Source of the DNA: a virus | Taxonomy: Duplodnaviria; Heunggongvirae; Uroviricota; Caudoviricetes | DNA length: 64,000 nt | Virus record (IMG/VR): IMGVR_UViG_3300006131_000005 | Strand: one strand, 5' to 3' | In this document: piece after piece, positions 1,539-63,357 of the stretch | How the letters are laid out: every line of letters starts with the position of its first letter | Numbering within the stretch: position 1 is the stretch's first letter | The notes under the pieces: model-generated | What the model was told of the DNA's origin: nothing | Databases searched by the model: none | The model's input: only the letters and a program-made list of their open reading frames with translations | Position numbers and translations under genes: made by a program

Positions 1539-1548
1539 GAGAATAACT

Positions 1549-1920: not shown

Positions 1921-1931
1921 GGGTGATTTAG

Positions 1932-3212: not shown

Positions 3213-3226
3213 AGGAGGTGATAGCT

Positions 3227-3835: not shown

Positions 3836-3868
3836 CCGCAACCAAATAATTTCAAGGAGGACTTGTAT

Positions 3869-4371: not shown

Positions 4372-4749
4372 ATGGCAGAGAAACTGACTACGATCGAACA
4401 GCTTAAAAAGCTGGCGCTCAGGACCAAGGCTGATTCCGCTGCCCGTATCTCCGAGCTGGCCGAGATGATCGCCGCCGGTCTGGAGGATTCGCAGATCGGC
4501 TTTGCTGTCACTCTGCCGGCCGCAAACTGGAGCGGCAGAGCACAGACAGTTCAGCACGAGTCCTTCCTGGCAGACAGCAGCTACTGGTATCTTGTCTGCG
4601 GCGACGCCGACTGCTTCATTGAGTGCGGCGACACCGGCATCCGAGCGGACAACATTACAACCAACGGTGAGGCCACGTTCCACTGTGAGATCACGCCGGA
4701 GAACGACCTGACCGTGAATATTCTTCGACTGGAGGTCGTCGAGAAATGA
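4372..4749 (+). CDS. Tail-module protein, paralog A' with fibre-tip-like C-terminus (..DLTVNILRLEVVEK)
   Basis: ATG after GGACGGAAACGA; N-term paralogous to 3869..4306, C-terminal ~30 aa homologous to C-terminus of 1932..3212. Confidence 0.5.
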   Translation: MAEKLTTIEQLKKLALRTKADSAARISELAEMIAAGLEDSQIGFAVTLPAANWSGRAQTVQHESFLADSSYWYLVCGDADCFIECGDTGIRADNITTNGEATFHCEITPENDLTVNILRLEVVEK

Positions 4750-7619: not shown

Positions 7620-7763
7620 CCGCGTAAAGGAGAGGTCTGGAGAACCTTGGGTCTCCGGGGAAACGAAATTCAAAATGGAGCGCCTGTCCATCCATAAACG
7701 GGCATAGGGGCCGGGGTCGAAAGATACCCTCCCCTAATTTTTATAGGGGTATGCACTGCGCCC

Positions 7764-7877
7764 ACGCTATCGTTGGTGGCAACTGGAACAATGACCTGAA
7801 TGCCGGACCGTTCTACATCAACCTGAACAATACGCCCGACAATACGAACACCAACATTGGCGCGGCCCTATCTTATC
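7764..7877 (+). repeat. DGR template region (TR), non-coding, AAC/AAT-rich
   Basis: Reads NWNNDLNAGPFYINLNNTPDNTNTNIGAALSY in VR frame (AAC codons typical of TR); lies between target and RT. Confidence 0.75.
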
Positions 7878-8046
7878 CACGCGAACCCTCATATATGAGC
7901 AATGCAGTGCATATCGCTGCCGAACGCAGTAAGGGGAGGGGCTTCACCGGCCTCTCCCTTTCCTCACCGCTTGGTGAAAATCAACTCGGTGCAAGCACCC
8001 GTTAGTATCTGAAAGAGGTGAAAGCGGGTGAGAGGATAAGAGAGTA

Positions 8047-9270
8047 ATGAAATCCTACAAACACTTGTTTGACATCTGCATATCGGAAGAAAACCGCCGC
8101 AAAGCCATCAAGCAGGCCAAGCGTACAAAGCGCGTCCGTAAGATGCTGAAGAAACGGCACATGTCGGATGATGAACTGCTGTGCGCCTCCTACGACTGGA
8201 TCATGCAGTACGAGAACGCCGAGCATGTTCCGAAGGTCATCCATGACGGGACGGCCCACAAGGAACGGGTCATCATCGTGCCGACGCTGGAGGAGCTTAT
8301 CGTTCAGCACTGTGTCGCTAAGGCCATGGAAGAGATGTTCTGGCATGGAATGTACCAGCACAGTTACGCCAGTCTGCCCAAGCGAGGAGCCCACAAGGCC
8401 AAGAAAGTCATCGAGAAATGGATCGAAACCGACCCGAAGAACGTGAAGTATGTTCTGAAAATGGACGTCCATCACTTCTTTGACAGTATCCCGCACGATA
8501 TTCTGAAAGCAAAGCTCCGCAAGCATATCCACGACGACATGATGCTGGACTTGCTGTTCAAGATTATCGACGTGACTGACGCCGGTATCCCTCTTGGCTT
8601 CTATACCTCGCAGTGGCTCTCCAACTGGTATTTGCAGGAGCTGGACCACTTCATCAAGGAGCAGCTTCACGCGGTCTACTATGTCCGCTACATGGACGAC
8701 ATGGTCATCTTCGGGTCAAACAAGAAAGTTCTGCACCAAATCAGACAAGCCATCTCCGAGTATCTTGAGACCAACCTGGGCCTGGAGCTGAAAGGAAATT
8801 GGCAGGTGTTTCGTTTCTCCTACACCGTCAACGGTGAAGACCGAGGGCGGCCTCTGGACTTCATGGGCTTCCAGTTCTATCGGAACCGGACGGTGCTGCG
8901 CAAATCTATCATGCTGAAAGCAACCAGAAAAGCCCGCAAGATTCACAAGAAACCTTATCAGGAGCGCAAGCCAACTGTTCACGACTACCGCCAGATGATG
9001 TCGTATCTGGGATGGATCGACTGTACCGACACCTACCGGATGTACCTGAAGCATATCAAGCCGAGGGTCAGCTTCCAGCGGATGAAGCGGTACATTTCCC
9101 GCTATGACCGGCATGACGACCGTCGTGTGTACGAGCAGCTTGTGCAGCTATATTTGCCGAGAGGAGGAAAGCGCCGTGGAACCCGTTTACATCACCGCAG
9201 AAAGTACCGTCCGCCCCAAGGAAATCGAAGTGGGCGTAACGACTGTGTATCTGCGCCGCAACATTGTTGA
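8047..9270 (+). CDS. DGR reverse transcriptase
   Basis: RYMDDMVIFG (YxDD) and IPLGFYTSQWLSNWYL (DGR-type LGxxxSQ) motifs; basic N-terminus; Arg-rich C-terminal tail may extend beyond functional end. Confidence 0.85.
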   Translation: MKSYKHLFDICISEENRRKAIKQAKRTKRVRKMLKKRHMSDDELLCASYDWIMQYENAEHVPKVIHDGTAHKERVIIVPTLEELIVQHCVAKAMEEMFWHGMYQHSYASLPKRGAHKAKKVIEKWIETDPKNVKYVLKMDVHHFFDSIPHDILKAKLRKHIHDDMMLDLLFKIIDVTDAGIPLGFYTSQWLSNWYLQELDHFIKEQLHAVYYVRYMDDMVIFGSNKKVLHQIRQAISEYLETNLGLELKGNWQVFRFSYTVNGEDRGRPLDFMGFQFYRNRTVLRKSIMLKATRKARKIHKKPYQERKPTVHDYRQMMSYLGWIDCTDTYRMYLKHIKPRVSFQRMKRYISRYDRHDDRRVYEQLVQLYLPRGGKRRGTRLHHRRKYRPPQGNRSGRNDCVSAPQHC

Positions 9271-24859: not shown

Positions 24860-24889
24860 CACGCGAAAAACACATATCCTTTTATGGAG
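24860..24889 (+). promoter_or_regulatory. Conserved intergenic motif, best consensus copy (CACGCGAAAAACACATATCCTTTTATGGAG), immediately upstream of tRNA-like gene
   Basis: Family motif; here it precedes a non-coding RNA, so the TATGGAG is not a start codon context. Confidence 0.45.
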
Positions 24890-24960
24890 AAACAGTTAGC
24901 TCAATGGTAGAGCGACAGACTAAAATCTGTGTGTTGCGAGTTCGAATCTCGCGCTGCTTC
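24890..24960 (+). tRNA. tRNA-like gene with aberrant 6-nt anticodon loop (CTAAAA); anticodon undetermined
   Basis: Canonical D-arm (GCTC-AATGGTA-GAGC), perfect T-arm GCGAG-TTCGAAT-CTCGC, 7-bp acceptor stem with one A-C mismatch; 71 nt, one short of standard; followed by terminator 24972..25005. Confidence 0.5.
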
Positions 24961-24971
24961 TCCGACGGCAT

Positions 24972-25022: not shown

Positions 25023-25322
25023 ATGCGTGAGCAGATTCTGCAAGATATCAAAGAGTCTATTATCGCCATCAGCATGGAGCTATTACACGCAGGCAAAGAC
25101 TGGTTCACACAACTCAGCTATGAGAAATGGGCCCTGCTGGAGATACAGGACCTGATTCTCCAAAATCCAGAAGCGTCTCCCTGGGATATTGTGGAGGAGT
25201 TTATCAACCTTATGGATCGGTATTCTCTTGTACCTCATCCCAATAATCACATCTTTTGTGTCGCTCATGACACCGCTTGGTCAGTCCTGGTGGAGCTGAT
25301 GGGCGAAGAACCGCTGCATTGA
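25023..25322 (+). CDS. Hypothetical protein
   Basis: ATG after GAAAGGAGAGACGT. Confidence 0.4.
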   Translation: MREQILQDIKESIIAISMELLHAGKDWFTQLSYEKWALLEIQDLILQNPEASPWDIVEEFINLMDRYSLVPHPNNHIFCVAHDTAWSVLVELMGEEPLH

Positions 25323-25339
25323 AAGGAGAACTGAAATCA

Positions 25340-25792
25340 ATGGAAATCGTAGGAAGCGTGATATTTAAGGACAAGACTTTGCCCATTTACAGCTCGCTTG
25401 ATGTGCCCCTGTTCAGGGCTTCGGACGTGGCTAAGCTGATCGAGTACAGCGACGGCAACGTCTGGAAGATGCTTGAGATGTGCGAGGCCGACGAGAAGCT
25501 GACTTTACCGATGGTAGCGCATGGCCAGAGGCGGACTGTCAGCTTCATCACGGAGACCGGCCTCTATAACATCCTTGCTCAAAGCCGGAAGCCGATTGCC
25601 CGAGCGTGGCGGCGTGTCGTCCATGAGGAACTGATTGCTCTCCGGAAGTCTCGGGGCAAGAACGTGGCCGAGCAGTTCCAGGATTGGGATGATGCCGCCG
25701 AGTCTATCTACTTCGACGAGGAGACTGGAATGATGATGCAGTCGGTTACGGTTGCCGGCGGCGATGTGGAGCAAATCCCTTATAGGCCCTAA
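25340..25792 (+). CDS. Bro-N domain protein (phage antirepressor-like)
   Basis: FKDKTLPIYSS..LFRASDVAKLIEYSDGNVWKMLE...TETGLYNILAQSRKPIARAWRRVVHEELI matches Bro-N/KilA-like N-terminal domain. Confidence 0.5.
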   Translation: MEIVGSVIFKDKTLPIYSSLDVPLFRASDVAKLIEYSDGNVWKMLEMCEADEKLTLPMVAHGQRRTVSFITETGLYNILAQSRKPIARAWRRVVHEELIALRKSRGKNVAEQFQDWDDAAESIYFDEETGMMMQSVTVAGGDVEQIPYRP

Positions 25793-25828: not shown

Positions 25829-26656
25829 ATGAAAATCCCGACCGGATTAGTGCCCAAAGCGGAGCGGTTCTTGAAAAAGGCTTCGCCGACGATCCTTACC
25901 TGCATTGGCGCGGCTGGTGTCGTGGCTACCGCTATTATGGCGGCCAAGGCGACCCCGAAAGCGTTGAAGCTGATCCACTCGGACAGCCGCATCAATCATG
26001 ATGGAGACCCGAATGCCTACACCAAGAAAGAGGCAGTGGCGTCCTGCTGGAGGTGTTACGTCCCCACGGTAATTGTCGGCGGCTCCACCATCGCCTGCAT
26101 ATTTGGGGCGAATGCTCTGAACAAACGCCAACAGGCGGCTCTTGCCAGCGCCTACGGGCTCGTGAGTCAGGCCTATAACGACTACAAGCGCAAGGTTCGC
26201 GAGAATTTTGGCGAGGAGGCCCACCGGGATATCATGCGGCAAATCGCCGCTGAACGCAGCAGTGGCGCTACGATCATCTCCCCCAATCTCATTAACGGTT
26301 CGTGCTTGGAATTTGAGGGTGCGAACGAGGAACAGCGGCTGTTCTATGACGCGATGTCTGAGCGATATTTTCAGGCTACCATCAGTCAGGTTCTCCAAGC
26401 GGAGTATCATCTCAACCGTAATTTCGCGCTTGGTGGAGGATTTATCACGCTGAATAACTTTTATGAATTTCTCGGCATTGACGGTGTTCAGGGTGGCGAT
26501 GACATTGGTTGGATGGTTTCGGACGGCCTCTATTGGGTCGATTTCGACCACAGCCGAGCCATGGTGGACGATGGTCTGAATGGTGAAGTCGAATGTTTTA
26601 TCATCGACGCGCCGTTTCCGCCGGTCAGCGAAGCGGAATACGATGAATATTTGTGA
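25829..26656 (+). CDS. Two-TM membrane protein, paralog family member 1 (unknown function)
   Basis: Shares SP(E/T)IL..IG.AG...T.IMA.KATPKAL, CY(I/V)P..IVGG..IAC, ALA.AY, LN.FY..(L/I)G(L/I)...G...GW with 27232..28017 and 29932..30915. Confidence 0.55.
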   Translation: MKIPTGLVPKAERFLKKASPTILTCIGAAGVVATAIMAAKATPKALKLIHSDSRINHDGDPNAYTKKEAVASCWRCYVPTVIVGGSTIACIFGANALNKRQQAALASAYGLVSQAYNDYKRKVRENFGEEAHRDIMRQIAAERSSGATIISPNLINGSCLEFEGANEEQRLFYDAMSERYFQATISQVLQAEYHLNRNFALGGGFITLNNFYEFLGIDGVQGGDDIGWMVSDGLYWVDFDHSRAMVDDGLNGEVECFIIDAPFPPVSEAEYDEYL

Positions 26657-26925: not shown

Positions 26926-27214
26926 CATGGATGCGCTTGATGCGGTAGACAAAATCCGCTGGTTCATGGAGCTTCCGGAAGCTCGCCCCGGTCTGCCCTG
27001 GGATAAGGAGTTTGAGAATCGTGCCTATATTCGCTGGGCCTGTAGTGAACTGACGCAGGATCTTATGGAGCGTCTGGATATTCCGGCCGAGATGACCATA
27101 GATGCGTTCTGGTTTCGGATGTTGCAGTTCTATCATTTCGCGGGCACTCCGAAAATGAGCAAAATCTTCCAGATCGCGATGGACACAGCGGATACAATCA
27201 AAGCAATGATTTGA
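26926..27214 (+). CDS. Hypothetical protein
   Basis: Internal ATG of ORF 26834..27214 after GTGAGGTGAATGAC. Confidence 0.4.
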
Positions 27215-27231
27215 AAGGAGATAGTTTTCTG

Positions 27232-28017
27232 ATGGATAAGCAAATGCTTGTCAATGCGGTTAAGAGTGTACGGACGGCGGCCAAACGGCACAGTCCGGAG
27301 ATACTCACCGGCATTGGCATCGCCGGCATGATTACTACGACTATCATGGCGGTTCGCGCCACACCGAAAGCTCTGACCATCATCGGCGAATGCGAGGTGG
27401 ATGAAAACCGGAAGCTCTCCAAGACGGAGGTCGTAAAAGCCACCTGGACCTGTTATATTCCGTCCGCAATCGTCGGCGGGGCGTCTATCGCTTGTCTTGT
27501 GGGCTCCACCTCCGTCAACCTTCGCCGGAACGCGGCCTTGGCGGCGGCTTACAGTTGCGCCGAGACTGCGCTGCGGGAGTACCAGGACAGGGTCGTAGAG
27601 GTCATCGGCGAGAAGAAGGAGCAGACGATCCGGGACGCGGTGGCAAAGGAACGGATCGAGAAGCATCCGGTTTCCGAGCAGCAGATTCTCTACACCGGCC
27701 ACGGTGATACCTTATGTTATGATGCTTGGTGCTCGCGGTACTTCAAATCCGACATTGAGGTGATTCGGCGGGCTATTCATGAACTGAATGACCGGCTTCG
27801 GGTGGACAATTATATTTCCCTGAACGAGTTTTATGACGCCATCGGCTTGGAAGAATCGAAAACCGGAGAAATCCTCGGGTGGAATATCGGGAAGGGCTAC
27901 ATCCAGCTTGCCTTCAGTTCCGTGTTGGCGTCCGATCTGACGCCGTTTCCGGATACGCCCTGTCTGGCGATCGACTTCCGGGTGCCCCCGCAGTACGACT
28001 ACGACCGGGGCTGGTGA
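27232..28017 (+). CDS. Two-TM membrane protein, paralog family member 2
   Basis: ATG after GAAAGGAGATAGTTTTCTG; see 25829..26656. Confidence 0.55.
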   Translation: MDKQMLVNAVKSVRTAAKRHSPEILTGIGIAGMITTTIMAVRATPKALTIIGECEVDENRKLSKTEVVKATWTCYIPSAIVGGASIACLVGSTSVNLRRNAALAAAYSCAETALREYQDRVVEVIGEKKEQTIRDAVAKERIEKHPVSEQQILYTGHGDTLCYDAWCSRYFKSDIEVIRRAIHELNDRLRVDNYISLNEFYDAIGLEESKTGEILGWNIGKGYIQLAFSSVLASDLTPFPDTPCLAIDFRVPPQYDYDRGW

Positions 28018-29931: not shown

Positions 29932-30915
29932 ATGAAAAAGACTGAACTGACTGCTACCTTGAGCCGCACCGTAAATAAGGTCGGCCTCCAGATCAAGAAG
30001 AGGAGCCCCGAGATCCTGATCGTCGCCGGCGTGGTAGGCACCGTCACCAGCGCCGTCATGGCCTGCAAGGCCACCCTGAAGGTGGACGAGATCATGCGGG
30101 AGAGCAACGACACCATCGAGAAGGTCCACAAGGCCCGGAGCATGGATGGGCAGCCGTCCCCCAGCAACCCTGAGAAGGTCATCGAGTACACCGCCGATGA
30201 CGCGAAGAGCGACTTGACCAAGGTCTATATCCAGACCGGCCTGAAGCTGGCTCACCTCTACGCCCCCTCTGTCATCCTGGGTGCTCTGTCCATCACCTGC
30301 TTCATTACGTCCCACAACATCATGCGCAAGCGCTGTGCCAATCTGGCGGCGGCATACGGCACCTTGGATACGGCCTTTAAGAAGTACCGCGAGCGGGTGG
30401 CAGAGCGCTTTGGTGAGGAAGTGGAGAAGGAGATCCGCTACAACATCAAGGCCAAGGAGATCGAGAAGACCATCGTGGACCCTGAGACCGGCGAGGAAAA
30501 GACTGTGAAGGAGACCGTCAAGGTCATGGACGGCGACCCTTCTTCGGTCAGTCCCTATGCTGTGGAGTTCAGCGAGAGCAACCCCAACTACTGCAAGGAC
30601 CCCAATATGAGCTTTGCCTTCCTGCGGGCCCAGCAGCAGTATTTCAACGACCTGCTCCAGGCGAAGGGGCACGTCTTCCTGAACGAGGTTTACGACGCTC
30701 TGGGCCTCCCTCGTACCAAGGCTGGCGCTGTCGTCGGCTGGGTCTTCGACTCGGATGCGCCTGTGGGCGACAACTATATCGACTTCGGCATGTACACCGC
30801 GGACAAGGAGAAGGTGCGGGATTTCGTCAACGGCGTGGAGCCGACGATCCTGCTGGACTTCAATGTGGACGGAGTGATTCTGGACCTGATCGCAAGCCAT
30901 CAGGCGATTGCGTAA
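29932..30915 (+). CDS. Two-TM membrane protein, paralog family member 3
   Basis: See 25829..26656; longest and most divergent copy. Confidence 0.55.
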   Translation: MKKTELTATLSRTVNKVGLQIKKRSPEILIVAGVVGTVTSAVMACKATLKVDEIMRESNDTIEKVHKARSMDGQPSPSNPEKVIEYTADDAKSDLTKVYIQTGLKLAHLYAPSVILGALSITCFITSHNIMRKRCANLAAAYGTLDTAFKKYRERVAERFGEEVEKEIRYNIKAKEIEKTIVDPETGEEKTVKETVKVMDGDPSSVSPYAVEFSESNPNYCKDPNMSFAFLRAQQQYFNDLLQAKGHVFLNEVYDALGLPRTKAGAVVGWVFDSDAPVGDNYIDFGMYTADKEKVRDFVNGVEPTILLDFNVDGVILDLIASHQAIA

Positions 30916-30926
30916 AGGAGGCCGCC

Positions 30927-31535
30927 ATGAACAAACGAATCGCTCATGGGATGATATTTGTTCCGCTGCTGTGTCTTCTGTTGGCCCTGCTCGCCTTCGC
31001 CCCTGTCTGGACATGGCAACATGACGCTCAGCCTCCCATCGAGGAGGCGGCGTCCGAGCCGGTGAAGACACCCTGCCCCCTGGAGTTGAACGACCTGGCT
31101 CCTCTTGTTAGCAAAGAGATATTTTATGCTCCATCTCCTTCGACGGCGGCGGAAACGACCCCCCCAGTGGAGGATTGGGTTTGTCCGCTTACGGACGAGG
31201 GGGTGGAGCTTATCGCTTTGCTTACGATGGCCGAAGCGGAGGGCGAATCCGAGTATGGGCAGCGCCTTGTGATCGACTCTGTGCTCAACCGGATGGATTC
31301 GGAGCACTTCCCTGATACCGTACATGGCGTAATCTATCAAAAGAATCAGTATTCATCCATGACTGGCGAACGCGTCACTCGCTGCTGGGTCAAGGAGGAA
31401 TTGTGTGAGCTGGTGCGTTCCGAATTAAAGGAGAGGACTGACTATGATGTGGTTTTCTTCCGAACAGGACACTATCATCCCTATGGAACCCCATTATTCC
31501 AGGTCGGAGCCCATTACTTTTCCAAGTACGGATGA
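30927..31535 (+). CDS. Cell-wall hydrolase, SleB/Hydrolase_2 family, with N-terminal signal/TM
   Basis: LTMAEAEGESEYGQRLVIDSVLNRMDSEHFPDTVHGVIYQKNQYS matches Hydrolase_2 core (A.AEA.GE..G...V..VLNR......FP.T...V..Q..Q(F/Y)S). Confidence 0.55.
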   Translation: MNKRIAHGMIFVPLLCLLLALLAFAPVWTWQHDAQPPIEEAASEPVKTPCPLELNDLAPLVSKEIFYAPSPSTAAETTPPVEDWVCPLTDEGVELIALLTMAEAEGESEYGQRLVIDSVLNRMDSEHFPDTVHGVIYQKNQYSSMTGERVTRCWVKEELCELVRSELKERTDYDVVFFRTGHYHPYGTPLFQVGAHYFSKYG

Positions 31536-43260: not shown

Positions 43261-43641
43261 ATGGACTTTCACACCGAATATTTAGGAAAGCCCTTTGTCC
43301 CGACATGGATTTACGGAGATGTGGACCCGCACAACGAAGAGTTTAATCAGACAATTCAAGCCGTAGAACGTGCGCTCGGTTTCAAACTCTTCGTATGGCA
43401 GAAAGCTTTCATCAACCGTGGAGAGTTTCGGCAGATGGGCGCGACTACGGCGAAAATTCTTCGTGAATTGCTGAATGTCTCTGGCGAGCCCATCGACTAC
43501 AGTCGCCCGTCGGCAAGTAAGCGGGATCAGTTTTACCGGGAAGAGCTTCGTCGTATCAAGTGCAAGCTGGATGAGGCCGGAATCCCGACGAGGCTCGTTT
43601 GGTTCTCGGAACGGGATAAGCACTATTGGCTGCATCGCTGA
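43261..43641 (+). CDS. Hypothetical protein
   Basis: ATG after GGAGGAATGAGGAACT. Confidence 0.45.
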   Translation: MDFHTEYLGKPFVPTWIYGDVDPHNEEFNQTIQAVERALGFKLFVWQKAFINRGEFRQMGATTAKILRELLNVSGEPIDYSRPSASKRDQFYREELRRIKCKLDEAGIPTRLVWFSERDKHYWLHR

Positions 43642-43671
43642 CTATCAACTATAAAAAGGAGAAACAACCTA

Positions 43672-44720
43672 TGGAACTGAAAAAATTCTGCACCGACCAC
43701 AACATCCCCCTAGAGGAGCTCGGCCCCATCGGCGAGGTGAGCGATGGCTTTCACACTTTCGACTCTCTCTACCACCAGAGGCTGATCCTCTTCGCCGCCC
43801 TGGTCAGTGCCTTTCCGAATAAAGCGTGGAAATCCCACAAGCACAGCGACGGCGAGGCTCCCTTCGGCGGAGGCTGGTTTATCGTCGGTATTCAGACACC
43901 GGAAGGCCAGTACACCTATCACTACGAGGACAAGGATTGGAATATTTTCCAGTGTCCGGAAGTGGAGAAGGCTCCCGAGTGGGATGGTCACACCGATAAG
44001 GACGTCACGCGGCTCCTCTCCCTGTTCAAGCCTGAGCCGGGCACACAGTCCGACTGGGCCGAGCGGGAGGTCGCGCTTGCTATCGCCGCTGAAAAAAAGA
44101 TGGCGGAGGGTACGAATGACTGGGCCTATGGTGCAGCTTGCTATGGGAGCGCTCTGCGGGCCCACCAGTCTCTTTCCCGCGACGGTCACTCCGGCTACAG
44201 CATCCAGATCACCAAGGGTATCCTGAACCGGCTGATTGACGGGAAGTGCCTGACGCCCATCGAGGACACGCCGGATATTTGGACGGACATCTCGGAGTCC
44301 TTCTCCAAGGACGATAAACGCAAGCATTACCAGTGCAACCGCATGTCCTCTCTATTCAAAGAGGTGGCCGAGGACGGCACCGTGACCTTCAGCGACGGGA
44401 ATCGGGTCTATTGCGTCAATGCCAATGATCCCGACAACACCTATACGAACGGCTTCGCTACCAATCTGGTCAATAAGATATTTCCCATCCGGATGCCCTA
44501 TTTCCCGGCCAGTAAGAAGTTCCGGGTCGTTGTGGATGAGTTCCTCTTTGATCCAAAGAACGGCGACTTCGACACGATCGGTTATCTCTGCATCATGACT
44601 CCGGATGGAAAGAAGGTTGAACTGAACCGCTACTTCAAGGAAGAGGGCGGAAAGCTGGTGCCCATTGAGAAGACCGAGTTCGATGAGCGGAAAGCGAAGA
44701 AGGTGAAGATAAATGGCTGA
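43672..44720 (+). CDS. Hypothetical protein (349 aa)
   Basis: ATG after AAAAAGGAGAAACAACCT. Confidence 0.5.
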
Positions 44721-51692: not shown

Positions 51693-52541
51693 ATGAGCGC
51701 GATTATCATGGATGGAACCGCTCTCGCCAAGCGGATAAAGTCGAACATTCGTAAATGGACAAACAGCCTTTTCTACGTTCCCGGTCTGGCGGTTGTCATG
51801 GTCGGGAACGACTTGGCATCCGAAACCTATGTGGCCGGAAAAATCAAGGATTGTGGTGAATGCGGCTTTTACAGCGAGAAGTACATATTTGACAAGGATA
51901 CTTGCGAAGAAAATTTGATCGATCTGATTAAGCAACTGAACACCCGACGGAACATCCACGGCATCCTTGTGCAACTGCCGCTTCCGGCTGGCATCAACAA
52001 GCATCGCGTTGTCGCCAGCATCGACCCCGGTAAGGATGTAGATTGCTTGCATCCTCTTAACATGGCAAATAACGTTGTACATCGCGGCCGAGGGCCCGTG
52101 CCATGCACTCCGGCCGGAATTATGCGGTTATTAGAGGAGTACCGGTTTGATTTTTCCGGCAAACGTGCTGTCGTGATTGGCCGTTCCGATATTGTCGGCG
52201 TCCCGATGGCATTCATGCTGCAACACGCAAACGCCACTGTGACGGTCTGCCACTCTTATACGAAAGAACTCTCCGAAATCACCAGACAAGCCGATATTTT
52301 GGTGTCGGCCGTTGGAAAGTTAGGTACGGTCACCTCCGAGATGGTAAAACCTGGGGCGGTAGTCATCGACGTTGGAATTACAAGAGGCTTTGACGGAAAG
52401 TTGCATGGAGACGTTGATTTCGATAGTGTAAAAGATGTCGTGTCGCATATCACACCCATCCCCGGTGGTGTCGGCCCTATGACCAGAGCAATGCTCATGA
52501 ATAACATCTGGACAATATGCCACGAGCCCGGAAGAAAATAA
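51693..52541 (+). CDS. folD: Bifunctional 5,10-methylene-tetrahydrofolate dehydrogenase / methenyl-THF cyclohydrolase (auxiliary metabolic gene)
   Basis: Full-length collinear match to FolD: IIDGTALAKRIK, LAVVMVGNDLASETYV, ILVQLPLPAGIN, DVDCLHPLN, PCTPAGIMRLLEEY, VVIGRSDIVGVPMA, ITPIPGGVGPMTRAML; AT-rich, own RBS. Confidence 0.8.
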   Translation: MSAIIMDGTALAKRIKSNIRKWTNSLFYVPGLAVVMVGNDLASETYVAGKIKDCGECGFYSEKYIFDKDTCEENLIDLIKQLNTRRNIHGILVQLPLPAGINKHRVVASIDPGKDVDCLHPLNMANNVVHRGRGPVPCTPAGIMRLLEEYRFDFSGKRAVVIGRSDIVGVPMAFMLQHANATVTVCHSYTKELSEITRQADILVSAVGKLGTVTSEMVKPGAVVIDVGITRGFDGKLHGDVDFDSVKDVVSHITPIPGGVGPMTRAMLMNNIWTICHEPGRK

Positions 52542-52584
52542 AAGGCGCGGCAGTGGATTTTTTGATTTGAAAGGAATGGGTCAT

Positions 52585-52908
52585 ATGAACGAAAAAGTTA
52601 TACATCACAAAGAACTGTGCGATGGGCTGAACGCCTTGTACGCTCGCAAAAATCACGACTACGGCGACAGCTTCCACCAGACTTTCGTGGAGGAAGGCCT
52701 GGCAATGTCCCGTATTCGGCTGGGGGACAAATTCTCCCGCTTTAAGACCCTGTCCCGTATTTCTCCAACTGACAGCGATCAGCAGCAGGTTACGGACGAG
52801 TCCATCCGGGACACTCTCCTCGACCTCGCAAACTACGCTATCATGACCGTGTTGGAGCTAGATGAGGCAGAGAAAAAAGCCACAGCTCCAGACTATGATA
52901 TTTCGTGA
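52585..52908 (+). CDS. Small all-alpha protein with KNHDYGDSF motif (MazG-like/DUF1599-like NTP-PPase fold?), tentative
   Basis: NALYARKNHDYGDSFH..RIRLGDKFSR; typical companion of phage nucleotide-metabolism genes. Confidence 0.35.
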   Translation: MNEKVIHHKELCDGLNALYARKNHDYGDSFHQTFVEEGLAMSRIRLGDKFSRFKTLSRISPTDSDQQQVTDESIRDTLLDLANYAIMTVLELDEAEKKATAPDYDIS

Positions 52909-54432: not shown

Positions 54433-54514
54433 GAAGTGTCAGCGTCATCTACCGCGCGAAGAAAACACCCTATATTGTGGAGAACAACACTCAACAATAA
54501 AAGGAGTTTTTGAA

Positions 54515-54706
54515 ATGAAAAAGGTATTTATGTTGTTGGTAGTGGCAGCTATGATTATCTGTGCCTTCCTGGCCGGAATCGTAATTGGACCGAGTCTCGG
54601 TTCAACAGAGTGCGAATTTGGCGAGGTAGAGCTTGGAGAAATGCTGCCCGGCACCAAAGCGGCGGATGACCTGATTACTTACGAGACTGCGATAAATGGA
54701 AAGTGA
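54515..54706 (+). CDS. Small secreted/membrane protein
   Basis: N-terminal hydrophobic signal; RBS AAAAGGAG. Confidence 0.35.
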   Translation: MKKVFMLLVVAAMIICAFLAGIVIGPSLGSTECEFGEVELGEMLPGTKAADDLITYETAINGK

Positions 54707-54723
54707 TATTTCTCACGAGGATT

Positions 54724-54752
54724 GAGCCCTTAACACGGGCTCTTTCTTTTTA
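54724..54752 (+). terminator. Rho-independent terminator (GAGCCCTTAACACGGGCTC + T-run)
   Basis: Conserved hairpin family. Confidence 0.6.
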
Positions 54753-54826
54753 CCGGAAACCAAAATTGGTGAGCTCCTTACATGTAAGAAATCGTAGAGA
54801 CGTGGTATGGAGAAAGGAGTAGTACC

Positions 54827-55009
54827 ATGAAACGCAACAGACGGGTTTATGATCCTACGGGTTTTCAGGCAATCCAGAACATTACGGACGAGACCAGAAG
54901 ATTCTACAAGCTGTTGTACACCATCTACTATATTTGTGAGCTCGCTGGGTTTGACGTCGGTGAACGCATTGTCCTCATTGACATGAAAACGGGACGTATC
55001 TGGAAGTAA
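54827..55009 (+). CDS. Small protein, paralog of 56314..56529 (C-term ICELAGFDVGERIVLIDMKTGRIWK)
   Basis: ATG after GAAAGGAGTAGTACC. Confidence 0.4.
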   Translation: MKRNRRVYDPTGFQAIQNITDETRRFYKLLYTIYYICELAGFDVGERIVLIDMKTGRIWK

Positions 55010-55029
55010 CTATATTTTTGGAGGCTACC

Positions 55030-55359
55030 ATGAGAGTCAAGAAAGCCGGTGGCAGGATATTCGGAGGAACAATGTCCGCTGCCGAGAAAAAAGCCATGGA
55101 CTTGGAAATCCAGCGTCAACTCGCCGAGTACGACCGGAAGCATCTGATCGAGATCGACGCCATGATCCTCTGGGTGCTGCATGAACGGTTTGGTTTCGGC
55201 CCCAAAAGGTTGCGGCAATACTACGACAGCTTCCGGGCCTGCACCAACGAGCTGGTTGAGCGGTACCAGATGGACACTGGTGATGACGTGTGGCTCTGTA
55301 CACAGATGCTGAAGCGCATTGGTGTGGACGTCGAGCAGTGGCATAAGGAGGTGAATTGA
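55030..55359 (+). CDS. Hypothetical protein
   Basis: ATG after TTGGAGGCTACC. Confidence 0.4.
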   Translation: MRVKKAGGRIFGGTMSAAEKKAMDLEIQRQLAEYDRKHLIEIDAMILWVLHERFGFGPKRLRQYYDSFRACTNELVERYQMDTGDDVWLCTQMLKRIGVDVEQWHKEVN

Positions 55360-55799
55360 TGCTCTACGAAATTACCTATTTATCGAAATATTACATCTCC
55401 CCTGGGCATTGCCTCGAATGTCCGCTACACTTTATCAATTTGAAGCCAGAACCCGGAGAACCGGCGACAGGGTGCGAATTGACCGGGGAATTTCTCCCGG
55501 ATGAGTGGGACATCGAAAATATTCCATGGGATAAATGTCCAGTGACTCAATGCGAAGAATATCCGACATCCGGTCTTGATAAGTTCGGAAAACTTGTGCG
55601 GGATATTCGTATCACCAGAAGCCTGCGGCTCTATGACATGGCTAAAGAACTTGGCCTATCTCCTGCCGAACTCTCGGCCATCGAGTGCGGGAGGAAACCT
55701 GTTCCGGATTGGTTCATTCCGGCGCTGGATAAGGCCTATGGCATTGGCGACGCCTGTGTTTGGACGCTGGAGTTGCTCGCTAAGAATCGAGGTGAATAA
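55359..55799 (+). CDS. Cys-rich N-terminal domain fused to XRE-type helix-turn-helix
   Basis: ATG after AAGGAGGTGAATTG; C-term IRITRSLRLYDMAKELGLSPAELSAIECGRK = HTH_XRE. Confidence 0.5.
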   Translation: MLYEITYLSKYYISPGHCLECPLHFINLKPEPGEPATGCELTGEFLPDEWDIENIPWDKCPVTQCEEYPTSGLDKFGKLVRDIRITRSLRLYDMAKELGLSPAELSAIECGRKPVPDWFIPALDKAYGIGDACVWTLELLAKNRGE

Positions 55800-55800
55800 T

Positions 55801-56304
55801 TTGACCTGTATCATAGGATTTACGGATCGCGAAAACAACATTTCATGGATCGGCGGAGATAGTCTTGGAAGCGACGGATACATTAAAGCAACCGAAATGC
55901 CGTCAAAAGTTTTCAGAAATGAGACGTTTACTAATGTCCTAATCGGAGGGACTACCACGTTCCGGCACTTAGATCTACTTAAGTATTCCGAAAGCCTTTT
56001 TGACGAGATTGATTGGTACAAGAAAGCGAATATCGACCACAAGTATATGGTGACAAAATTTATTCCGAAGGTCATTGAACTGTTCAAATATGGGATTATC
56101 GGCGAGCCAGAAACAAAACGCGGTGGAAACTTTATTGTTGCCACACCGGGAAAAATATTTGAGGTGCAGCCAGACTATTCCGTTTTAGAACCTGAACTCG
56201 GAATATGCTCTGTTGGATGCGGCGCGGAGCAATATTGTTGCGGCGTCCAAAGACCATTTCGTATTCTATGTACCGATGGGAGCGATGAAATTGTAATCCG
56301 ATAA
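55801..56304 (+). CDS. HslV/proteasome-beta-like N-terminal-nucleophile hydrolase, tentative
   Basis: TTG after GAGGTGAATAA; N-term (M)TCIIGFTDRENNISWIGGDSLGSDG..KVFRNETFTNVLIGGTTTF aligns with HslV [45 protein letters not shown]; later CSVGCGAEQY ~ IAIGSGGPYA; AT-rich. Confidence 0.4.
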   Translation: MTCIIGFTDRENNISWIGGDSLGSDGYIKATEMPSKVFRNETFTNVLIGGTTTFRHLDLLKYSESLFDEIDWYKKANIDHKYMVTKFIPKVIELFKYGIIGEPETKRGGNFIVATPGKIFEVQPDYSVLEPELGICSVGCGAEQYCCGVQRPFRILCTDGSDEIVIR

Positions 56305-56313
56305 AACACAGTT

Positions 56314-56529
56314 TTGGTGGTGAGTGATATTTTGTCTGCAAAAGATAGGAAAAACTCGGAGGGCTATTCCGATCCGACTATTTACGCAGCCATGAAGAAC
56401 ATCGCCCGAGACGAAGACCGTTTTCGGAAACTACGTAAGGTCATCTTAAACATTTGCGACGTGGCGGGCTTCGAGATTCGGGGTCCGCTCATTCTTATGG
56501 ACAAGAAGACCGGAAAGATTTGGAGGTGA
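56314..56529 (+). CDS. Small protein, paralog of 54827..55009
   Basis: C-term ICDVAGFEIRGPLILMDKKTGKIWR. Confidence 0.4.
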   Translation: MVVSDILSAKDRKNSEGYSDPTIYAAMKNIARDEDRFRKLRKVILNICDVAGFEIRGPLILMDKKTGKIWR

Positions 56530-56657
56530 ATCCATTGGACTGGAAAAATTGTGCAGTATGGTTACTCAGGCTTGTAACTGCCGGAATATTGGTGGTTGGT
56601 ATTCTTTTGGGTCTTGTTATTGGAAAAATATTTTGAGGAAGGAGCGTGAGAATAACT

Positions 56658-57053
56658 ATGACTGGATATTCTGAGGCACCTCAATGGTCTGACTTAACTC
56701 CTGAAAAAATTTGCGACGAGTTAAGAGTTCTTACCAAAAGAGTTAGGCAGATGAAAGCTCAGCAGCCTTCCGGTATTATAATCATGGCCGGAGAAGCCGC
56801 ACACGCCACTATTCGTCATACATTTCCAGAAGATACCGAAACCGTAAAAATCAAGCCTTGTCGATATCTTAAACCAGATCAGTGTCTCATAGTCGGGGTT
56901 GATATTTCCGAAAACAAAGACCTCTCTGTGCTCACGGTTAGCCGTCTCGACAGGACCAAGATGACTGTGGTCAACACCTTCATGGGTGCCGAAGCCGAAG
57001 AGATGTACGAACATCTTACAGGCCAGAAAGTTGGGGTGGTCCGGGATGAATGA
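56658..57053 (+). CDS. Hypothetical protein
   Basis: ATG after GAAGGAGCGTGAGAATAACT. Confidence 0.4.
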   Translation: MTGYSEAPQWSDLTPEKICDELRVLTKRVRQMKAQQPSGIIIMAGEAAHATIRHTFPEDTETVKIKPCRYLKPDQCLIVGVDISENKDLSVLTVSRLDRTKMTVVNTFMGAEAEEMYEHLTGQKVGVVRDE

Positions 57054-57360
57054 TTGGTTGTTTCCAGAAGAGGTCATCGAACTTATCCGACAGAAAGCCA
57101 AAGAGCTTCTACTGGATTTTGACACTCTTGCTGATGCTGTGAACAGAGCACTTGGCATCGTTGGCTATTCCATGCAAGAGGCTACGGAAGCCTTTGAAAA
57201 GCTCTTCAAACAGGCAGAGGAACAGAGTATTGCGAGTGTCGGTACATCTCCTAAAAAATATGGAATGTCGCTTCACAAACGCCAAAATCAAGTAGCCACG
57301 CACTACAATTATATTCCCAGAGTACCCAGGAACCAACCACACCAACGGCGGGCATACTAA
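57046..57360 (+). CDS. Hypothetical protein
   Basis: ATG overlapping previous stop. Confidence 0.35.
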   Translation: MNDWLFPEEVIELIRQKAKELLLDFDTLADAVNRALGIVGYSMQEATEAFEKLFKQAEEQSIASVGTSPKKYGMSLHKRQNQVATHYNYIPRVPRNQPHQRRAY

Positions 57361-60573: not shown

Positions 60574-63357
60574 ATGGACCCTAGTTTAGACGAAGTGTTC
60601 GGTCAGGTTGTTGAGATGGCCGAGCAAGACCCTGACATTCTGATGCACTACGGCATCGGTAAACTGGATGGCGCTCCGGGTCCTGGTTCCGGCCGCTATC
60701 CCCTGGGAAGCGGAAAGAACCCCAACCAGCGCAGCGGCGACTTCCTCTCCCGGGTGGATGAGCTTCGCAAGCAGAGGTTTACCTACACTGATAAGGATGG
60801 GAAGGTTTGGACGGGAGACAATGCCATCGCCAAGGCTATGGGCCTGACCAGCACCCAGTTCCGCACTCAGTTGGGCCTTGCTCGGGATGAGCGCCGCTCA
60901 TCTAATGTGGCTACGGCCAAACGGCTGCGCGACGAGGGCAAGACTTTGAAGGAAATTGCTGACACAATGGGTTTCCCCAACGACTCCTCCGTTCGTTCCC
61001 TGCTTAATGAGAGTTCGGAAGCCCGAATGAACCAGGCCAAGAAGACCGCTGAGTTCCTGAGACAGCAGATCGCTGAAAAGGGAATGATCGACGTGGGCAC
61101 CGGCGTGGAGCGGGAACTCGGTATCTCTAGGGAGAAGCTAAACCAGGCGCTATATATGTTGGAGATGGAGGGCTACGCTGTCTATGGCGGCGGCGTTCCC
61201 CAGGTCACCAACAAGGGCCAGCAGACAAATCTCAAGGTTCTCTGTCCTCCAGGCACGGAGCACAAGGACATCTACAACTTTGGCGAGATCCATTCTGTTG
61301 TGGATTACATCAGTCCTGACGGCGGTGAGACCTTCAAGCCGGCCTTTGTCTATCCTGAGAGTATGGACTCATCCCGGCTGAAGATTCGCTATGCCGAAGA
61401 AGGCGGGCTCCAGCGGGACGGAACCGTGGAACTTCGCCGTGGTGTGGCTGATCTGTCCCTGGGTGAGTCCAGCTATGCTCAGGTCCGCATTCTGGTAGAT
61501 GGAAAGAAGTACATCAAGGGAATGGCATTCTACGGCGATGATAAGGACTTCCCTGATGGCGTGGATGTGATCTTTAACACCAACAAGAAGAAGGGTACTC
61601 CTATGGGGGATGTCCTCAAGACCATCAAGGATGATCCAGACAATCCCTTTGGCTCCCTCATCAAGGAGCGCGGCGGCCAGAGCTACTACATCGACCCGAA
61701 AACCGGGAAGGAGAAGCTGTCTCTCATCAATAAACGGGCCGAGGAAGGGGACTGGGGGGAATGGAGCGATCATCTCCCCTCTCAATTTCTTTCTAAGCAG
61801 TCCATGACACTGATTAAAAAGCAGCTTGGCTTGGCTGCGGCTGATAAGGCGTCTGAGTTCGACGAGATCTGTGCCCTCACCAATCCCACCATGAAGAAGG
61901 CACTTCTGGCTTCCTTCGCTGACGACTGCGATTCAGCGGCCGTACACCTTCAGGCAGCGGCTTTGCCGAGACAGAAGTATCAGGTCATCCTTCCTATTGC
62001 TTCGATGAAGGACACTGAGGTCTACGCCCCCAATTACAGGGATGGCGAGACCGTCGCGCTTGTCCGTTATCCTCATGGCGGCACCTTCGAGATTCCAATT
62101 CTTAAGGTGAACAACAAGCAGAGTGAGGCGAAGCGCATCCTGGGCAACGCTCTTGACGCTATTGGCATCAACTCCAAGGTGGCGGAGCGGCTGTCCGGCG
62201 CTGACTTCGATGGCGACACTGTTATGGTCATCCCCACCGGGGGCAAGATCAAAATTACATCCACTCATGCGCTGAAAGGGCTGGAAGGCTTCGACCCGAA
62301 GCTGGAGTACGGCGGCAAACCGGAAGGTTCTTTCAAGCAGATGAAGAACACCCAGACCGAAATGGGTAAGATCTCCAATCTCATCACCGACATGACTCTG
62401 AAAGGCGCCACTGAACCGGAGTTAGCGAGGGCTGTACGGCATAGTATGGTGGTCATCGACGCCGAGAAACATCATCTCGACTACAAGCAGAGCGAGAAGG
62501 ACAACGGCATTGCCGCCTTGAAGAAGAAGTATCAGGGCTATGTGACCGACGACGGTGAGGAAAGAGGCGGCGCCTCTACCCTGATCTCAAGGGCAAAGTC
62601 CGAGGTCTCCGTTCCAAAGCGGAAAGGAAGTCCTAAGACTGACCCTGACACCGGGGAGCTGGTATGGAAGGTCGATGAGGATCGGTTCTACACCGACCCC
62701 AAGACCGGGAAGACCGTGGAGAGGCGGCAGAAGAGTACCCAGATGGCCGAGGAAAGGGACCCCTATAAGCTGTCGTCCGGCACTCCGCAGGAAGAGGCTT
62801 ACGCCGCTTACGCCAGCCAGATGAAGTCCCTGGCCAACCAGGCCCGTAAGGAGATCCTATCCACCGGCAAGATTACTTACTCCGCCTCCGCCAAAGAGAC
62901 CTATCAGACTGAGGTAGCCTCCCTGACCTCCAAGCTCAACATCGCCCTCAAGAACGCCCCCAGGGAGAGGCAGGCCCAGGTCATGGCCAACAGCGTCGTG
63001 GCCGCCAAGAAGAAGGACAACCCCGGTATGACCAAGGAGGAGATCAAGAAGGCCAGCCAGCAGGCGTTGAGCTCTGCCCGTGCTACTGTTGGCGCAAAGC
63101 GGACGCCTATCGTCATCACTGACCGGGAATGGCAGGCGATTCAGGCCGGCGCGATCAGTGAGAACAAGCTGACGCAGATCATCAACCACGCCGACATCGA
63201 CGTGCTTCGGTCTTACGCGACGCCGAGAGCGACGACAACGCTCAGCACCGCGAAGATCAACAAGATCTCGTCCATGAACGCTTCTGGTTACACCACTGCT
63301 GAGATCGCTGAAAGTCTTGGCGTCTCAACTTCCACTGTGCGAAAGTATCTCTCTTGA
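60574..63357 (+). CDS. Large protein with RNAP beta'-type ADFDGD metal-binding motif and C-terminal HTH; candidate YonO-like single-subunit RNA polymerase (tentative)
   Basis: SGADFDGDTVMVIPTGG resembles NADFDGDQMAVHVP of multisubunit RNAP beta'; C-term TTAEIAESLGVSTSTVRKYLS sigma-region-4-like HTH; no P-loop, so not a terminase. Confidence 0.35.
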   Translation: MDPSLDEVFGQVVEMAEQDPDILMHYGIGKLDGAPGPGSGRYPLGSGKNPNQRSGDFLSRVDELRKQRFTYTDKDGKVWTGDNAIAKAMGLTSTQFRTQLGLARDERRSSNVATAKRLRDEGKTLKEIADTMGFPNDSSVRSLLNESSEARMNQAKKTAEFLRQQIAEKGMIDVGTGVERELGISREKLNQALYMLEMEGYAVYGGGVPQVTNKGQQTNLKVLCPPGTEHKDIYNFGEIHSVVDYISPDGGETFKPAFVYPESMDSSRLKIRYAEEGGLQRDGTVELRRGVADLSLGESSYAQVRILVDGKKYIKGMAFYGDDKDFPDGVDVIFNTNKKKGTPMGDVLKTIKDDPDNPFGSLIKERGGQSYYIDPKTGKEKLSLINKRAEEGDWGEWSDHLPSQFLSKQSMTLIKKQLGLAAADKASEFDEICALTNPTMKKALLASFADDCDSAAVHLQAAALPRQKYQVILPIASMKDTEVYAPNYRDGETVALVRYPHGGTFEIPILKVNNKQSEAKRILGNALDAIGINSKVAERLSGADFDGDTVMVIPTGGKIKITSTHALKGLEGFDPKLEYGGKPEGSFKQMKNTQTEMGKISNLITDMTLKGATEPELARAVRHSMVVIDAEKHHLDYKQSEKDNGIAALKKKYQGYVTDDGEERGGASTLISRAKSEVSVPKRKGSPKTDPDTGELVWKVDEDRFYTDPKTGKTVERRQKSTQMAEERDPYKLSSGTPQEEAYAAYASQMKSLANQARKEILSTGKITYSASAKETYQTEVASLTSKLNIALKNAPRERQAQVMANSVVAAKKKDNPGMTKEEIKKASQQALSSARATVGAKRTPIVITDREWQAIQAGAISENKLTQIINHADIDVLRSYATPRATTTLSTAKINKISSMNASGYTTAEIAESLGVSTSTVRKYLS

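Follow-up and report, generated by a model that had tools for sequence, protein, structure and literature searches.

The locus at positions 54,827 to 56,529 of the window (the whole 64,000-nucleotide stretch of DNA that was analysed) is an ordinary mosaic accessory region, in a portion of the genome, most of it unannotated, of a very common gut phage. The reading that we favour, with a probability of about 0.7, is that of an accessory patchwork in which an inherited core received separate additions, the copy of a peptidase gene is most likely an inactive remnant, and two small paralogous genes, sA and sB, delimit no mobile or functional unit. The inherited core would consist of a 109-aa gene (g109) and, downstream of it, a single small protein of the "EGYSDPT...KTGKIWR" type (sB); a short XRE-HTH gene often separates the two. 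In the lineage of the window, three pieces would have been added to this core separately, namely a 595-bp segment upstream of g109 (54433-55027; 63-aa peptide gene, terminator-like hairpin and sA), a Cys-rich N-terminal extension of the HTH protein, which probably binds zinc, and a single gene for an HslV-like threonine peptidase, inserted precisely after the HTH stop codon and ahead of the start of sB. A deletion between GCGGCG repeats has stripped the window copy of this peptidase of H3 and H4, and hence of an entire helical layer of the alpha-beta-beta-alpha sandwich; because of this loss, it is most likely an inactive remnant carried by a successful phage clone.

This phage is related to phages and prophages of Oscillospiraceae (Flavonifractor, Oscillibacter, Pseudoflavonifractor). 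A scan of genome contigs for its host returned only distant relatives (Anaerovorax, a Peptococcaceae MAG) and not the phage itself, and blastn with the locus gave no match in GenBank phages. As it stands, the locus means little, its most striking gene belonging to an already annotated phage family and being probably damaged.

Layout, base composition and the small paralogs

All five open reading frames were confirmed on the + strand: sA (54827..55009, 60 aa), g109 (55030..55359), a gene for a 146-aa protein made of a Cys-rich N-terminal part (55359..55568, CxxC...C...CxxxxC) and an XRE-type HTH domain (55569..55799), the peptidase gene in its 167-aa form (55801..56304), and sB (56332..56529, 65 aa). 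The arrangement described in the earlier note, with three genes between two small paralogs, was indeed found. The genes are closely packed, the TGA stop of g109 sharing one nucleotide with the ATG of the gene that follows, and the Cys-HTH gene being followed by the peptidase gene as TAA, one base, TTG. A terminator-like hairpin (54724..54750, + strand; GAGCCC-loop-GGGCTC then a T run), identified by a pattern scan only, lies between the 63-aa gene (54515-54706) and sA, within the 54433-55027 segment that is missing from the sister phage L072.

The region had been described as an AT-rich stretch, which holds for the added pieces (43-46% GC) but not for the core (53-55%), in a window of 51.8% GC. 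The peptidase gene (42.9%, in the lowest 2% of 504-nt windows), sA (45.4%) and the Cys-rich part (46.2%) are thus AT-rich, whereas g109 (54.5%) and the HTH part (52.8%) are not. Outside this lineage, the nearest relatives of the peptidase gene were found in loci of 40-42% GC, and its source was probably a lower-GC Clostridia phage.

The paralogy of the two small genes was significant, as had been supposed. BLASTP aligned sA and sB without gaps (23/52 identities, 44%; 36/52 positives; E=8e-17), both matched the phrog_6568 profile over nearly their full length (8.5e-14 for sA, 2.4e-20 for sB), and the shared C-terminal motif given in the earlier note, with its KTG(R/K)IW(K/R) end, was found in both. 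The sB gene itself was confirmed, but its start at 56314, which would give 71 aa, is less likely than the TTG at 56332, since sB homologs are mostly 65 aa long. sB is the resident copy, 85-88% identical and at the equivalent backbone position in sister phages L052, L057-60, L070 and L072. sA is a divergent member of the family, in which YDPT is present and the EGYS motif absent; it is missing from L072 and is an extra copy specific to the lineage of the window. IMG/VR holds at least 484 loci encoding a relative of this small family; a search of it with sA alone as the query found no sA-type genes. The AF2 model of the small protein, a modest one (pLDDT 76.8), has a long helix followed by a beta-hairpin, and the Foldseek matches of this model in PDB and BFVD were limited to noise and to phage proteins that are themselves uncharacterised. 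PDB was also searched, by profile and by sequence, with the small family and g109, and yielded nothing; g109, sA and sB had no match in Pfam, NCBIfam, PADLOC, PDB or Foldseek searches; Pfam, NCBIfam and PADLOC searches with the peptidase also gave nothing significant.

Two directly oriented paralogs on both sides of three genes could be the ends of a mobile cassette, as boundary duplicates that serve in recombination or signal a transposed unit. We consider this extremely unlikely: there is no DNA-level repeat between sA and sB, their conserved halves share only about 53% nucleotide identity (84/159 columns), and they belong to different subfamilies. Moreover, the gene g109 that they enclose belongs to the backbone and is not cargo, the comparison with sister phages points to two separate insertions and not one, and all of the 80 other loci with a small gene carry a single copy, two per locus being unusual for PHROG 6568.

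Fold, catalytic residues and phage relatives of the peptidase

The peptidase gene starts with a TTG at 55801, 5 nt after AGGTGA, and reads on TCIIGF. Some gene callers choose an upstream ATG (MALATPVF...), and the resulting extension was considered as a propeptide; it was rejected, being the out-of-frame 3' end of the HTH gene, while 120 of 133 family representatives start with MT. The 167-aa protein matched phrog_1040, "peptidase HslV family" (7e-10; residues 1-143 on profile positions 14-121 of 277). When searched alone, it gave nothing meaningful by sequence in PDB and no match to Pfam Proteasome, a profile matched by 12 of 58 family members. A profile search of PDB with the family placed HslV in the top three positions, weakly (E about 0.04). 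The AF2 model of a full-length relative, P0003 (pLDDT 93.5, pTM 0.90), found HslV 1m4y as its best Foldseek match in PDB (2.7e-10, TMt 0.77-0.78), followed by BPH (5ovu, 5ovs; 1.4e-9) and 20S beta subunits. The sandwich is complete in this 195-aa family model, where H1-H2 cover one face and H3-H4 the opposite one. The 195-aa family therefore consists of proteasome-beta/HslV-type Ntn threonine peptidases (MEROPS T1), and the HslV-type fold previously proposed stands for it, on AF2 and Foldseek, though the sandwich is incomplete in the window copy, from which H3 and most of H4 are deleted.

Alignment with E. coli HslV by hhalign paired T2 with Thr1, D20 with D17, K36 with K33, and GCG with GSG. 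A threonine directly after the methionine, as proposed in the earlier note for 55801..56304, was present, and T2 was found in 127 of 134 aligned family sequences, D20 in 132, K36 in 133 and G139 in 133; D20 and K36 are both present in the window copy. The Gly-Ser-Gly loop of HslV-type enzymes, whose serine is Ser124 in HslV and Ser129 in 20S, corresponds here to G139-C140-G141, with Cys for Ser and two nearly invariant glycines. From a mechanistic point of view, and by extension from the family, removal of the initiator Met, assumed from methionine aminopeptidase specificity, would expose the nucleophile Thr1 of the full-length peptidase, while D20 and K36 (equivalents of Asp17 and Lys33) and the Gly-Cys-Gly loop would complete the active site. 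Its subunits may stack into rings like those of HslV or BPH, and it may act alone or with a host unfoldase, because the phage ORFs scanned revealed no HslU-like ATPase.

Bacterial HslV (ClpQ), which supplies the peptidase activity of the ATP-dependent protease HslUV, has its fold and its aligned catalytic residues in common with the phage family, as well as the lack of a propeptide. By contrast, sequence similarity is marginal, GCG replaces GSG, and the window copy is devoid of H3-H4. BPH and Anbu are stand-alone bacterial homologs of the proteasome for which no ATPase partner is known. They share a stand-alone proteasome-beta fold with the phage family, and BPH was among the top structural matches, but they were not closer than HslV in the fold search; the likeness concerns a possible way of working, not membership.

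The earlier note saw no obvious phage precedent for a stand-alone peptidase of this type beside a DNA-binding protein and between duplicated genes; for the peptidase this does not hold, the family being PHROG 1040, found by tblastn in 189 GenBank phage records, some of them annotated "peptidase HslV family" or "protease", and comprising 5,738 protein clusters at 50% identity. Escherichia phage 121Q, Salmonella phages Munch and 7t3, Geobacillus virus E3 and Moorella phage MTATph1 offer examples, with stand-alone proteins of about 170-195 aa that have Thr after Met, like the window gene, 33-39% identity over 84-100% of the query, and no adjacent HslU-like gene; the window copy differs from them by the 28 residues (H3-H4) that it lacks, and its subfamily by the Cys in place of the Ser of HslV in the Gly-Ser-Gly loop and by a conserved CCGVQRPF C-terminus. 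HslV genes without HslU were also described in a jumbo-phage paper (PMC7823757). In the window, 20 ORFs of 155 aa or more outside the locus were scanned and included no AAA+ unfoldase or HslU, and no HslU-like partner was found beside the peptidase gene in 45 other loci, where ten neighbour proteins were domain-scanned, or in the Moorella phage. The commonest neighbour family was present in at most 19 of these 45 loci. The literature on phage HslV-like proteins yielded annotations only, and no experimental or functional study was found. Given its very large size, its intact catalytic residues and the lack of a known partner or function, the family would reasonably repay biochemical work.

Deletion alleles of the peptidase gene

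DNA alignment with the near-identical phage L001 revealed an 84-bp in-frame deletion in the window copy. Its junction (56218..56229, + strand) reads GGATGCGGC|GCGGAGC, and the deletion ends lie at two GCGGCG microhomologies. The 167-aa protein consequently lacks the 28 residues that follow the GCG motif, i.e., residues 142-169 of the 195-aa form, which correspond in the AF2 model to helix H3 (142-152) and most of H4 (159-173). Four of the lost positions, A145, G147, A166 and L167, are each kept by 90% or more of relatives, and the segment is missing from none of 134 diverse relatives. The possibility of an assembly artefact was rejected, as the exact 167-aa protein occurs in 711 blocks of the collection, compared with 2 for the full-length form; its two annotated forms had contig counts of 465 and 601. 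In a sister allele, present in 27 blocks and 99.95-100% identical to the window over 8.5 kb, a deletion of 1,029 bp (56179-57207) takes away the C-terminus of the peptidase together with sB. The occurrence of this allele of the same phage in many samples indicates that the peptidase gene is dispensable. Intact, 84-bp deletion and 1,029-bp deletion alleles thus exist in a nearly identical, very widespread gut phage, which constitutes a natural experiment on dispensability.

Judging from structure and conservation, the 167-aa allele is probably inactive. It may alternatively work in an altered way, as a non-ring peptidase or as a poison or decoy subunit directed against a host HslV-type protease, in line with a deletion that keeps the reading frame, Thr1, the Asp (D20), the Lys (K36) and GCG, and with the dominance of this allele in public data. 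However, such dominance is explicable by clonal spread, the sequences being almost invariant, while the altered allele lacks a segment that all 134 diverse relatives keep, together with four highly conserved positions, in a gene that the phage can lose. We therefore regard altered function as rather unlikely, and an inactive remnant as the better account of this allele.

A broader proposal, more doubtful still, is that phage HslV-like peptidases are proteases of counter-defence or host takeover that work with a host unfoldase, that the slot between g109 and the small gene is an accessory hot spot, and that the 167-aa allele is ring-incompetent yet acts, for example by poisoning a host HslV-type protease. 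If it were true, the stand-alone HslV-like peptidases of phages (more than 5,000 clusters) would destroy specific host proteins by means of the host unfoldase, and accessory genes would be swapped in and out of the slot between g109 and the small gene.

Empty sites, neighbourhoods and the conserved core

Sister phages provided empty sites for the added genes. In place of the entire peptidase gene of the window, L052 has the sequence AAGAATCGAGGTGA|TTGATATTTTG; the gene is therefore a single-gene insertion relative to L052, and in L052, L070 and L073 the HTH gene abuts sB with a clean junction and no peptidase gene. L072 (85-88% nucleotide identity) passes from w53902 to g109 and directly to sB, and lacks window segments 54433-55027 and 55350-56329. 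Neighbourhoods in other phages pointed in the same direction. None of the 45 HslV-like loci from other phages had the HTH gene, the 109-aa gene or the small genes, and none of the 80 small-gene loci, each with one copy, had an HslV-like gene; the genes of the proposed module were never together outside near-identical strains.

These results bear on the suggestion of a two-gene module made of the Cys-HTH protein and the HslV-like peptidase, a regulator with a protease that would serve as a switch, a toxin or an anti-defence system, bracketed by duplicated genes. The two genes are adjacent, co-directional and one base apart, and this arrangement is kept in the 24 longest contigs with the exact protein (711 blocks). 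Both are absent from L072, so that they could have arrived together, and a gene with a Tad3 domain, of the anti-Thoeris type, lies 11 kb upstream of the locus. No HTH homolog was present, however, within 4-8 kb in any of the 45 HslV-like loci, the HTH gene exists directly against sB without the peptidase, and the peptidase of the window has lost two helices, the sister allele shortening it further. As for a toxin or defence function, PADLOC gave no significant match beyond a generic HTH_VI model for the Cys-HTH protein (5e-6), and none of its models matched sA, g109, sB or the full-length peptidase. The lack of co-occurrence thus largely refutes the two-gene module, which we consider very unlikely, and favours a patchwork of separate additions.

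The HTH assignment was confirmed, residues 76-132 of the Cys-HTH protein matching Pfam HTH_31 (3.6e-8, 34.0 bits) above its gathering cut-off of 27. This match places the protein near the XRE-family HTH regulators of phages (Pfam HTH_31 / HTH_19), from which it differs by its Cys-rich N-terminus, a lineage-specific extension found in few relatives. Its five cysteines are kept in all five full-length homologs, and it is probably a zinc ribbon, with predicted zinc binding. The Cys module is C-terminal to the HTH in P0365, missing from most homologs, and present in none of the 80 small-gene loci.

The core itself is more widely conserved. In 56 of the 80 small-gene loci a g109 homolog was found no more than 3 kb from the small gene, and in the loci inspected it was upstream; g109, which has a weak phrog_17690 match, shows 94% identity in L072 and 68-70% in Flavonifractor-type phages. 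An HTH gene is immediately upstream of the small gene in 38 of the 80 loci; in sister phages it is a stand-alone gene of 75-104 aa at this position, such as the 75-aa HTH-only gene of L052 (79% identical). A natural fusion, in P0396/L064, of the HTH in frame with the small protein suggests that the core may be a regulatory unit. This uncharacterised g109-(HTH)-small-protein core is kept in hundreds of Oscillospiraceae phages.

The locus and its peptidase family

The locus at 54827-56529 is a mosaic in which separate insertions surround a conserved core, and its copy of the HslV-like peptidase gene is probably inactive. Its five open reading frames all lie on the same strand. The small gene sA (54827-55009, 60 aa) is followed by g109 (55030-55359), which encodes a 109-aa protein, and by the gene for the 146-aa Cys-HTH protein (55359-55799), whose ATG has one base in common with the g109 stop codon. 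The peptidase gene (55801-56304, 167 aa) has a TTG start, located 5 nt 3' of AGGTGA and one base beyond the preceding TAA. The second small gene, sB, ends at 56529 and has two candidate starts, 56314 and 56332, of which the TTG at 56332 is favoured because homologs are mostly 65 aa long. The Cys-HTH protein was indeed found to combine the two domains previously ascribed to it: an XRE-type HTH at residues 76-132 (Pfam HTH_31, 34 bits vs. a cut-off of 27) and, N-terminal to it, a 70-residue part whose five cysteines are kept in all full-length homologs.

The assignment of the 167-aa protein to the HslV/proteasome Thr1-type family was confirmed. This protein matched phrog_1040, "peptidase HslV family" (7e-10), and a database search returned 298 relatives, nearly all of 195 aa. 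An AlphaFold2 model of P0003, a full-length member, drew on 58 sequences (pLDDT 93.5, pTM 0.90) and showed strands and helices in the order known from proteasome beta subunits. Its best Foldseek match in the PDB was Thermotoga HslV (2.7e-10, TMt 0.77), with S. aureus HslV, BPH and numerous 20S beta subunits ranking next, so that the predicted fold of the family is clearly of the HslV/proteasome-beta type. Evidence at the sequence level was weaker and agreed with this fold: the three best matches of the family profile among PDB sequences were all HslV (E about 0.04), and Pfam Proteasome was reached by 12 of the 58 family members (best 1.9e-5). An hhalign comparison with an E. coli HslV sequence paired T2 with Thr1, D20 with Asp17, K36 with Lys33 and G-C-G 139-141 with the Gly-Ser-Gly loop. 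In an alignment of 134 sequences (133 representatives at 50% identity plus P0003), Thr directly followed the initiator Met in 127, and D20, K36 and G139 were present in 132, 133 and 133, respectively. This conservation supports an active enzyme, and taken together these results show the family assignment to be right.

Such a peptidase is not new to phages, contrary to the earlier note, which saw no obvious precedent. Using tblastn, the family was found in 189 GenBank phage records, with Rak2/121Q-type jumbo phages, Geobacillus virus E3 and Moorella phage MTATph1 among them; the labels "peptidase HslV family" or "protease" are already in use for several of these. Among 1.84 billion representative proteins, a profile search retrieved 5,738 clusters at E<=1e-3, of which 3,352 reached E<=1e-10, and HslV genes without HslU have been described in a Salmonella jumbo phage (PMC7823757). 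The phage HslV-like peptidase is therefore already annotated, though biochemically unstudied, literature searches having returned no functional study of any phage member.

Alleles of the peptidase gene

Compared with its relatives, the window's protein lacks 28 residues immediately after GCG. Two related loci, L001 and L002, with 99-99.9% DNA identity to the window, carry the full-length gene, from which the window's copy differs by an 84-bp deletion between two GCGGCG microhomologies. On the P0003 model, the missing residues (142-169) span all of helix H3 (142-152) and the larger part of H4 (159-173). In 20S and HslV structures, one of the two layers of helices consists of H3 and H4, which also form the contact between rings. 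A145, G147, A166 and L167, all within the deletion, are each conserved in 90% or more of family members, and every one of the 134 diverse relatives has the segment, with 25-63 residues retained there. On these structural and conservation grounds, the window's 167-aa allele is probably inactive. An artefact was ruled out as the source of the deletion, since the exact 167-aa protein recurs across 711 blocks of the collection, with 465 and 601 contigs carrying its two annotated forms. Given how prevalent this allele is, an altered function has some, though low, probability; a wider reading, in which the phage HslV-like family serves counter-defence or host takeover and the dominant short allele keeps an altered activity, seems improbable to us.

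A third allele of the same phage was found in L067-L069. Over 8.5 kb, L067 matches the window at 99.95-100% identity; its 1,029-bp deletion (window 56179-57207) leaves ~126 N-terminal residues of the peptidase fused to the C-terminal end encoded by the 56986-57360 gene, with sB and two more small genes lost. This allele occurs in 27 blocks. The peptidase gene is therefore dispensable in the window's phage.

Additions around an inherited core

The two small genes, described in the earlier note as paralogs bracketing the cassette, are indeed clearly paralogous: their proteins align without gaps (23/52 identities, E=8e-17), and both match phrog_6568 over nearly the full profile length. DNA identity between their conserved halves is only ~53%, and a repeat search detected no repeat linking them; the duplication is therefore old, or the copies derive from different phages.

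Empty sites were found in sister phages. In L052 and L053, a 75-aa HTH-only gene (79% identical) directly abuts sB (88%), the DNA alignment reading ...AAGAATCGAGGTGA|TTGATATTTTG... at the site where the window and L001 hold the whole peptidase gene, and GGTGA flanks this insertion on either side. L072, whose backbone shares 85-88% nucleotide identity with the window, runs from a homolog of the gene at window 53902 to g109 (94% amino acid identity) and sB (85%) with nothing between; it is devoid of window 54433-55027 (a 63-aa gene, a terminator-like hairpin and sA) and of 55350-56329 (Cys-HTH and the peptidase gene). In L057-L060, NrdD-NrdG precede sB at the same backbone position. The stretch around the locus is therefore a variable slot, in which g109-(HTH)-sB is the inherited core, to which sA, the Cys extension and the peptidase gene were added.

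This division is matched by base composition (43-46% GC in the additions vs. 53-55% in the core). The description of the cassette as AT-rich thus holds for the peptidase gene (42.9%, within the lowest 2% of 504-nt windows), sA (45.4%) and the Cys part (46.2%), and fails for g109 (54.5%) and the HTH part (52.8%), the whole window being at 51.8%. The closest outside relatives of the peptidase gene lie in loci of 40-42% GC.

A novel module pairing a peptidase with a DNA-binding protein between duplicated genes was not supported by the neighborhoods in other genomes, where the gene set is not kept together. Around 45 HslV-like loci from other phages (32-72% identity, flanks of 4-8 kb), tblastn detected no homolog of sA/sB, g109 or Cys-HTH, no neighbor family was shared by more than 19 of these loci, and the ten neighbor proteins scanned contained no unfoldase domain. 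Conversely, the 80 IMG/VR small-gene loci analyzed, out of at least 484 found, each contained exactly one small gene, with neither an HslV-like gene nor a Cys module in any. A g109 homolog lay within 3 kb of the small gene in 56 of them, on its 5' side in the loci inspected, and an HTH gene was immediately upstream in 38; about half were without any HTH gene.

Tight packing with overlaps is seen in Flavonifractor-type phages and prophages for g109 (68-70% identical), the gene of a 98-aa HTH protein and the small gene, the last two commonly overlapping in different frames. In L064-L066, an extra A in an A-run (A7 vs. A6 in L061; positions 5180-5440 in both L064 and L061) places them in one frame, giving the 143-aa fusion P0396, present on 17 contigs. 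This natural fusion hints that the HTH and small proteins act together when both are present. The small protein was modeled as a long helix spanning residues 15-45 and then a beta-hairpin (pLDDT 76.8), and structure and sequence searches returned no informative relative; a regulatory or protein-binding role for it and for g109 is only a guess.

In the L057-L060 slot upstream of sB (about 1100-4100), the insertion of an HNH/NUMOD4 homing-endonuclease gene has divided the NrdD (anaerobic ribonucleotide reductase) gene, which is followed by NrdG, into two ORFs. Directly 3' of sB, window 56535-56636 encodes a hydrophobic peptide of ~33 aa, kept in relatives (33 aa in L057), whose ribosome-binding site and start context (GAGGTGAATCCATTGGACTG) resemble the HTH/peptidase gene junction (GAGGTGAATAATTTGACCTG).

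Context in the phage genome

The large phage to which the window belongs has almost all of its genes on the + strand, and the window encodes tail proteins, a DUF5906-type primase/helicase, an ssDNA-binding protein, a methylase, an SPFH protein and DUF2800. For the small and HTH proteins, the named relatives belong to Oscillospiraceae (Flavonifractor, Oscillibacter, Pseudoflavonifractor).

A diversity-generating retroelement occupies 4746-9270. Its variable repeat (VR, 7486-7596), 111 nt at the end of a 957-aa Big_3-domain protein, is 84% identical to the template repeat (TR, 7764-7874) 278 nt downstream, with mismatches mostly at template adenines, and the reverse transcriptase gene follows (8047-9270; RVT_1, 6.2e-19). 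ARAGORN reported a tRNA-like gene at 24889-24963, with no anticodon or amino acid identity assigned. A stretch of 5 kb contains three paralogous DUF6353 genes (25829-26656, 27211-28017 and 29932-30915; E 1e-73 to 1e-82), between a Bro-N gene upstream (25277-25792) and a cell-wall hydrolase gene downstream (30927-31535).

About 11 kb upstream of the locus, a 364-aa protein (43626-44720) with WDGH (3.2e-41) and Tad3 "Type I Thoeris inhibitor" (3.6e-27) matches is likely the product of an anti-defence gene; in the relatives L061-L065, the same backbone includes a Tad3 protein of 344 aa. At 51693-52908, FolD (methylene-tetrahydrofolate dehydrogenase/cyclohydrolase; both domains, 5.4e-65 and 1.2e-33) is encoded ahead of a DUF1599 "nucleotide modification associated" protein, an arrangement that suggests folate or nucleotide-modification chemistry driven by the phage. 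Finally, a 927-aa protein (60574-63357) with a C-terminal sigma-70 region-4-like HTH shows ~50% identity, along 97-98% of its sequence, to counterparts in Gordonia, Arthrobacter, Streptomyces and Microbacterium phages, where the annotation varies between "RNA-dependent RNA polymerase" and "HTH DNA-binding protein"; such conservation between Firmicutes and Actinobacteria phages is striking.
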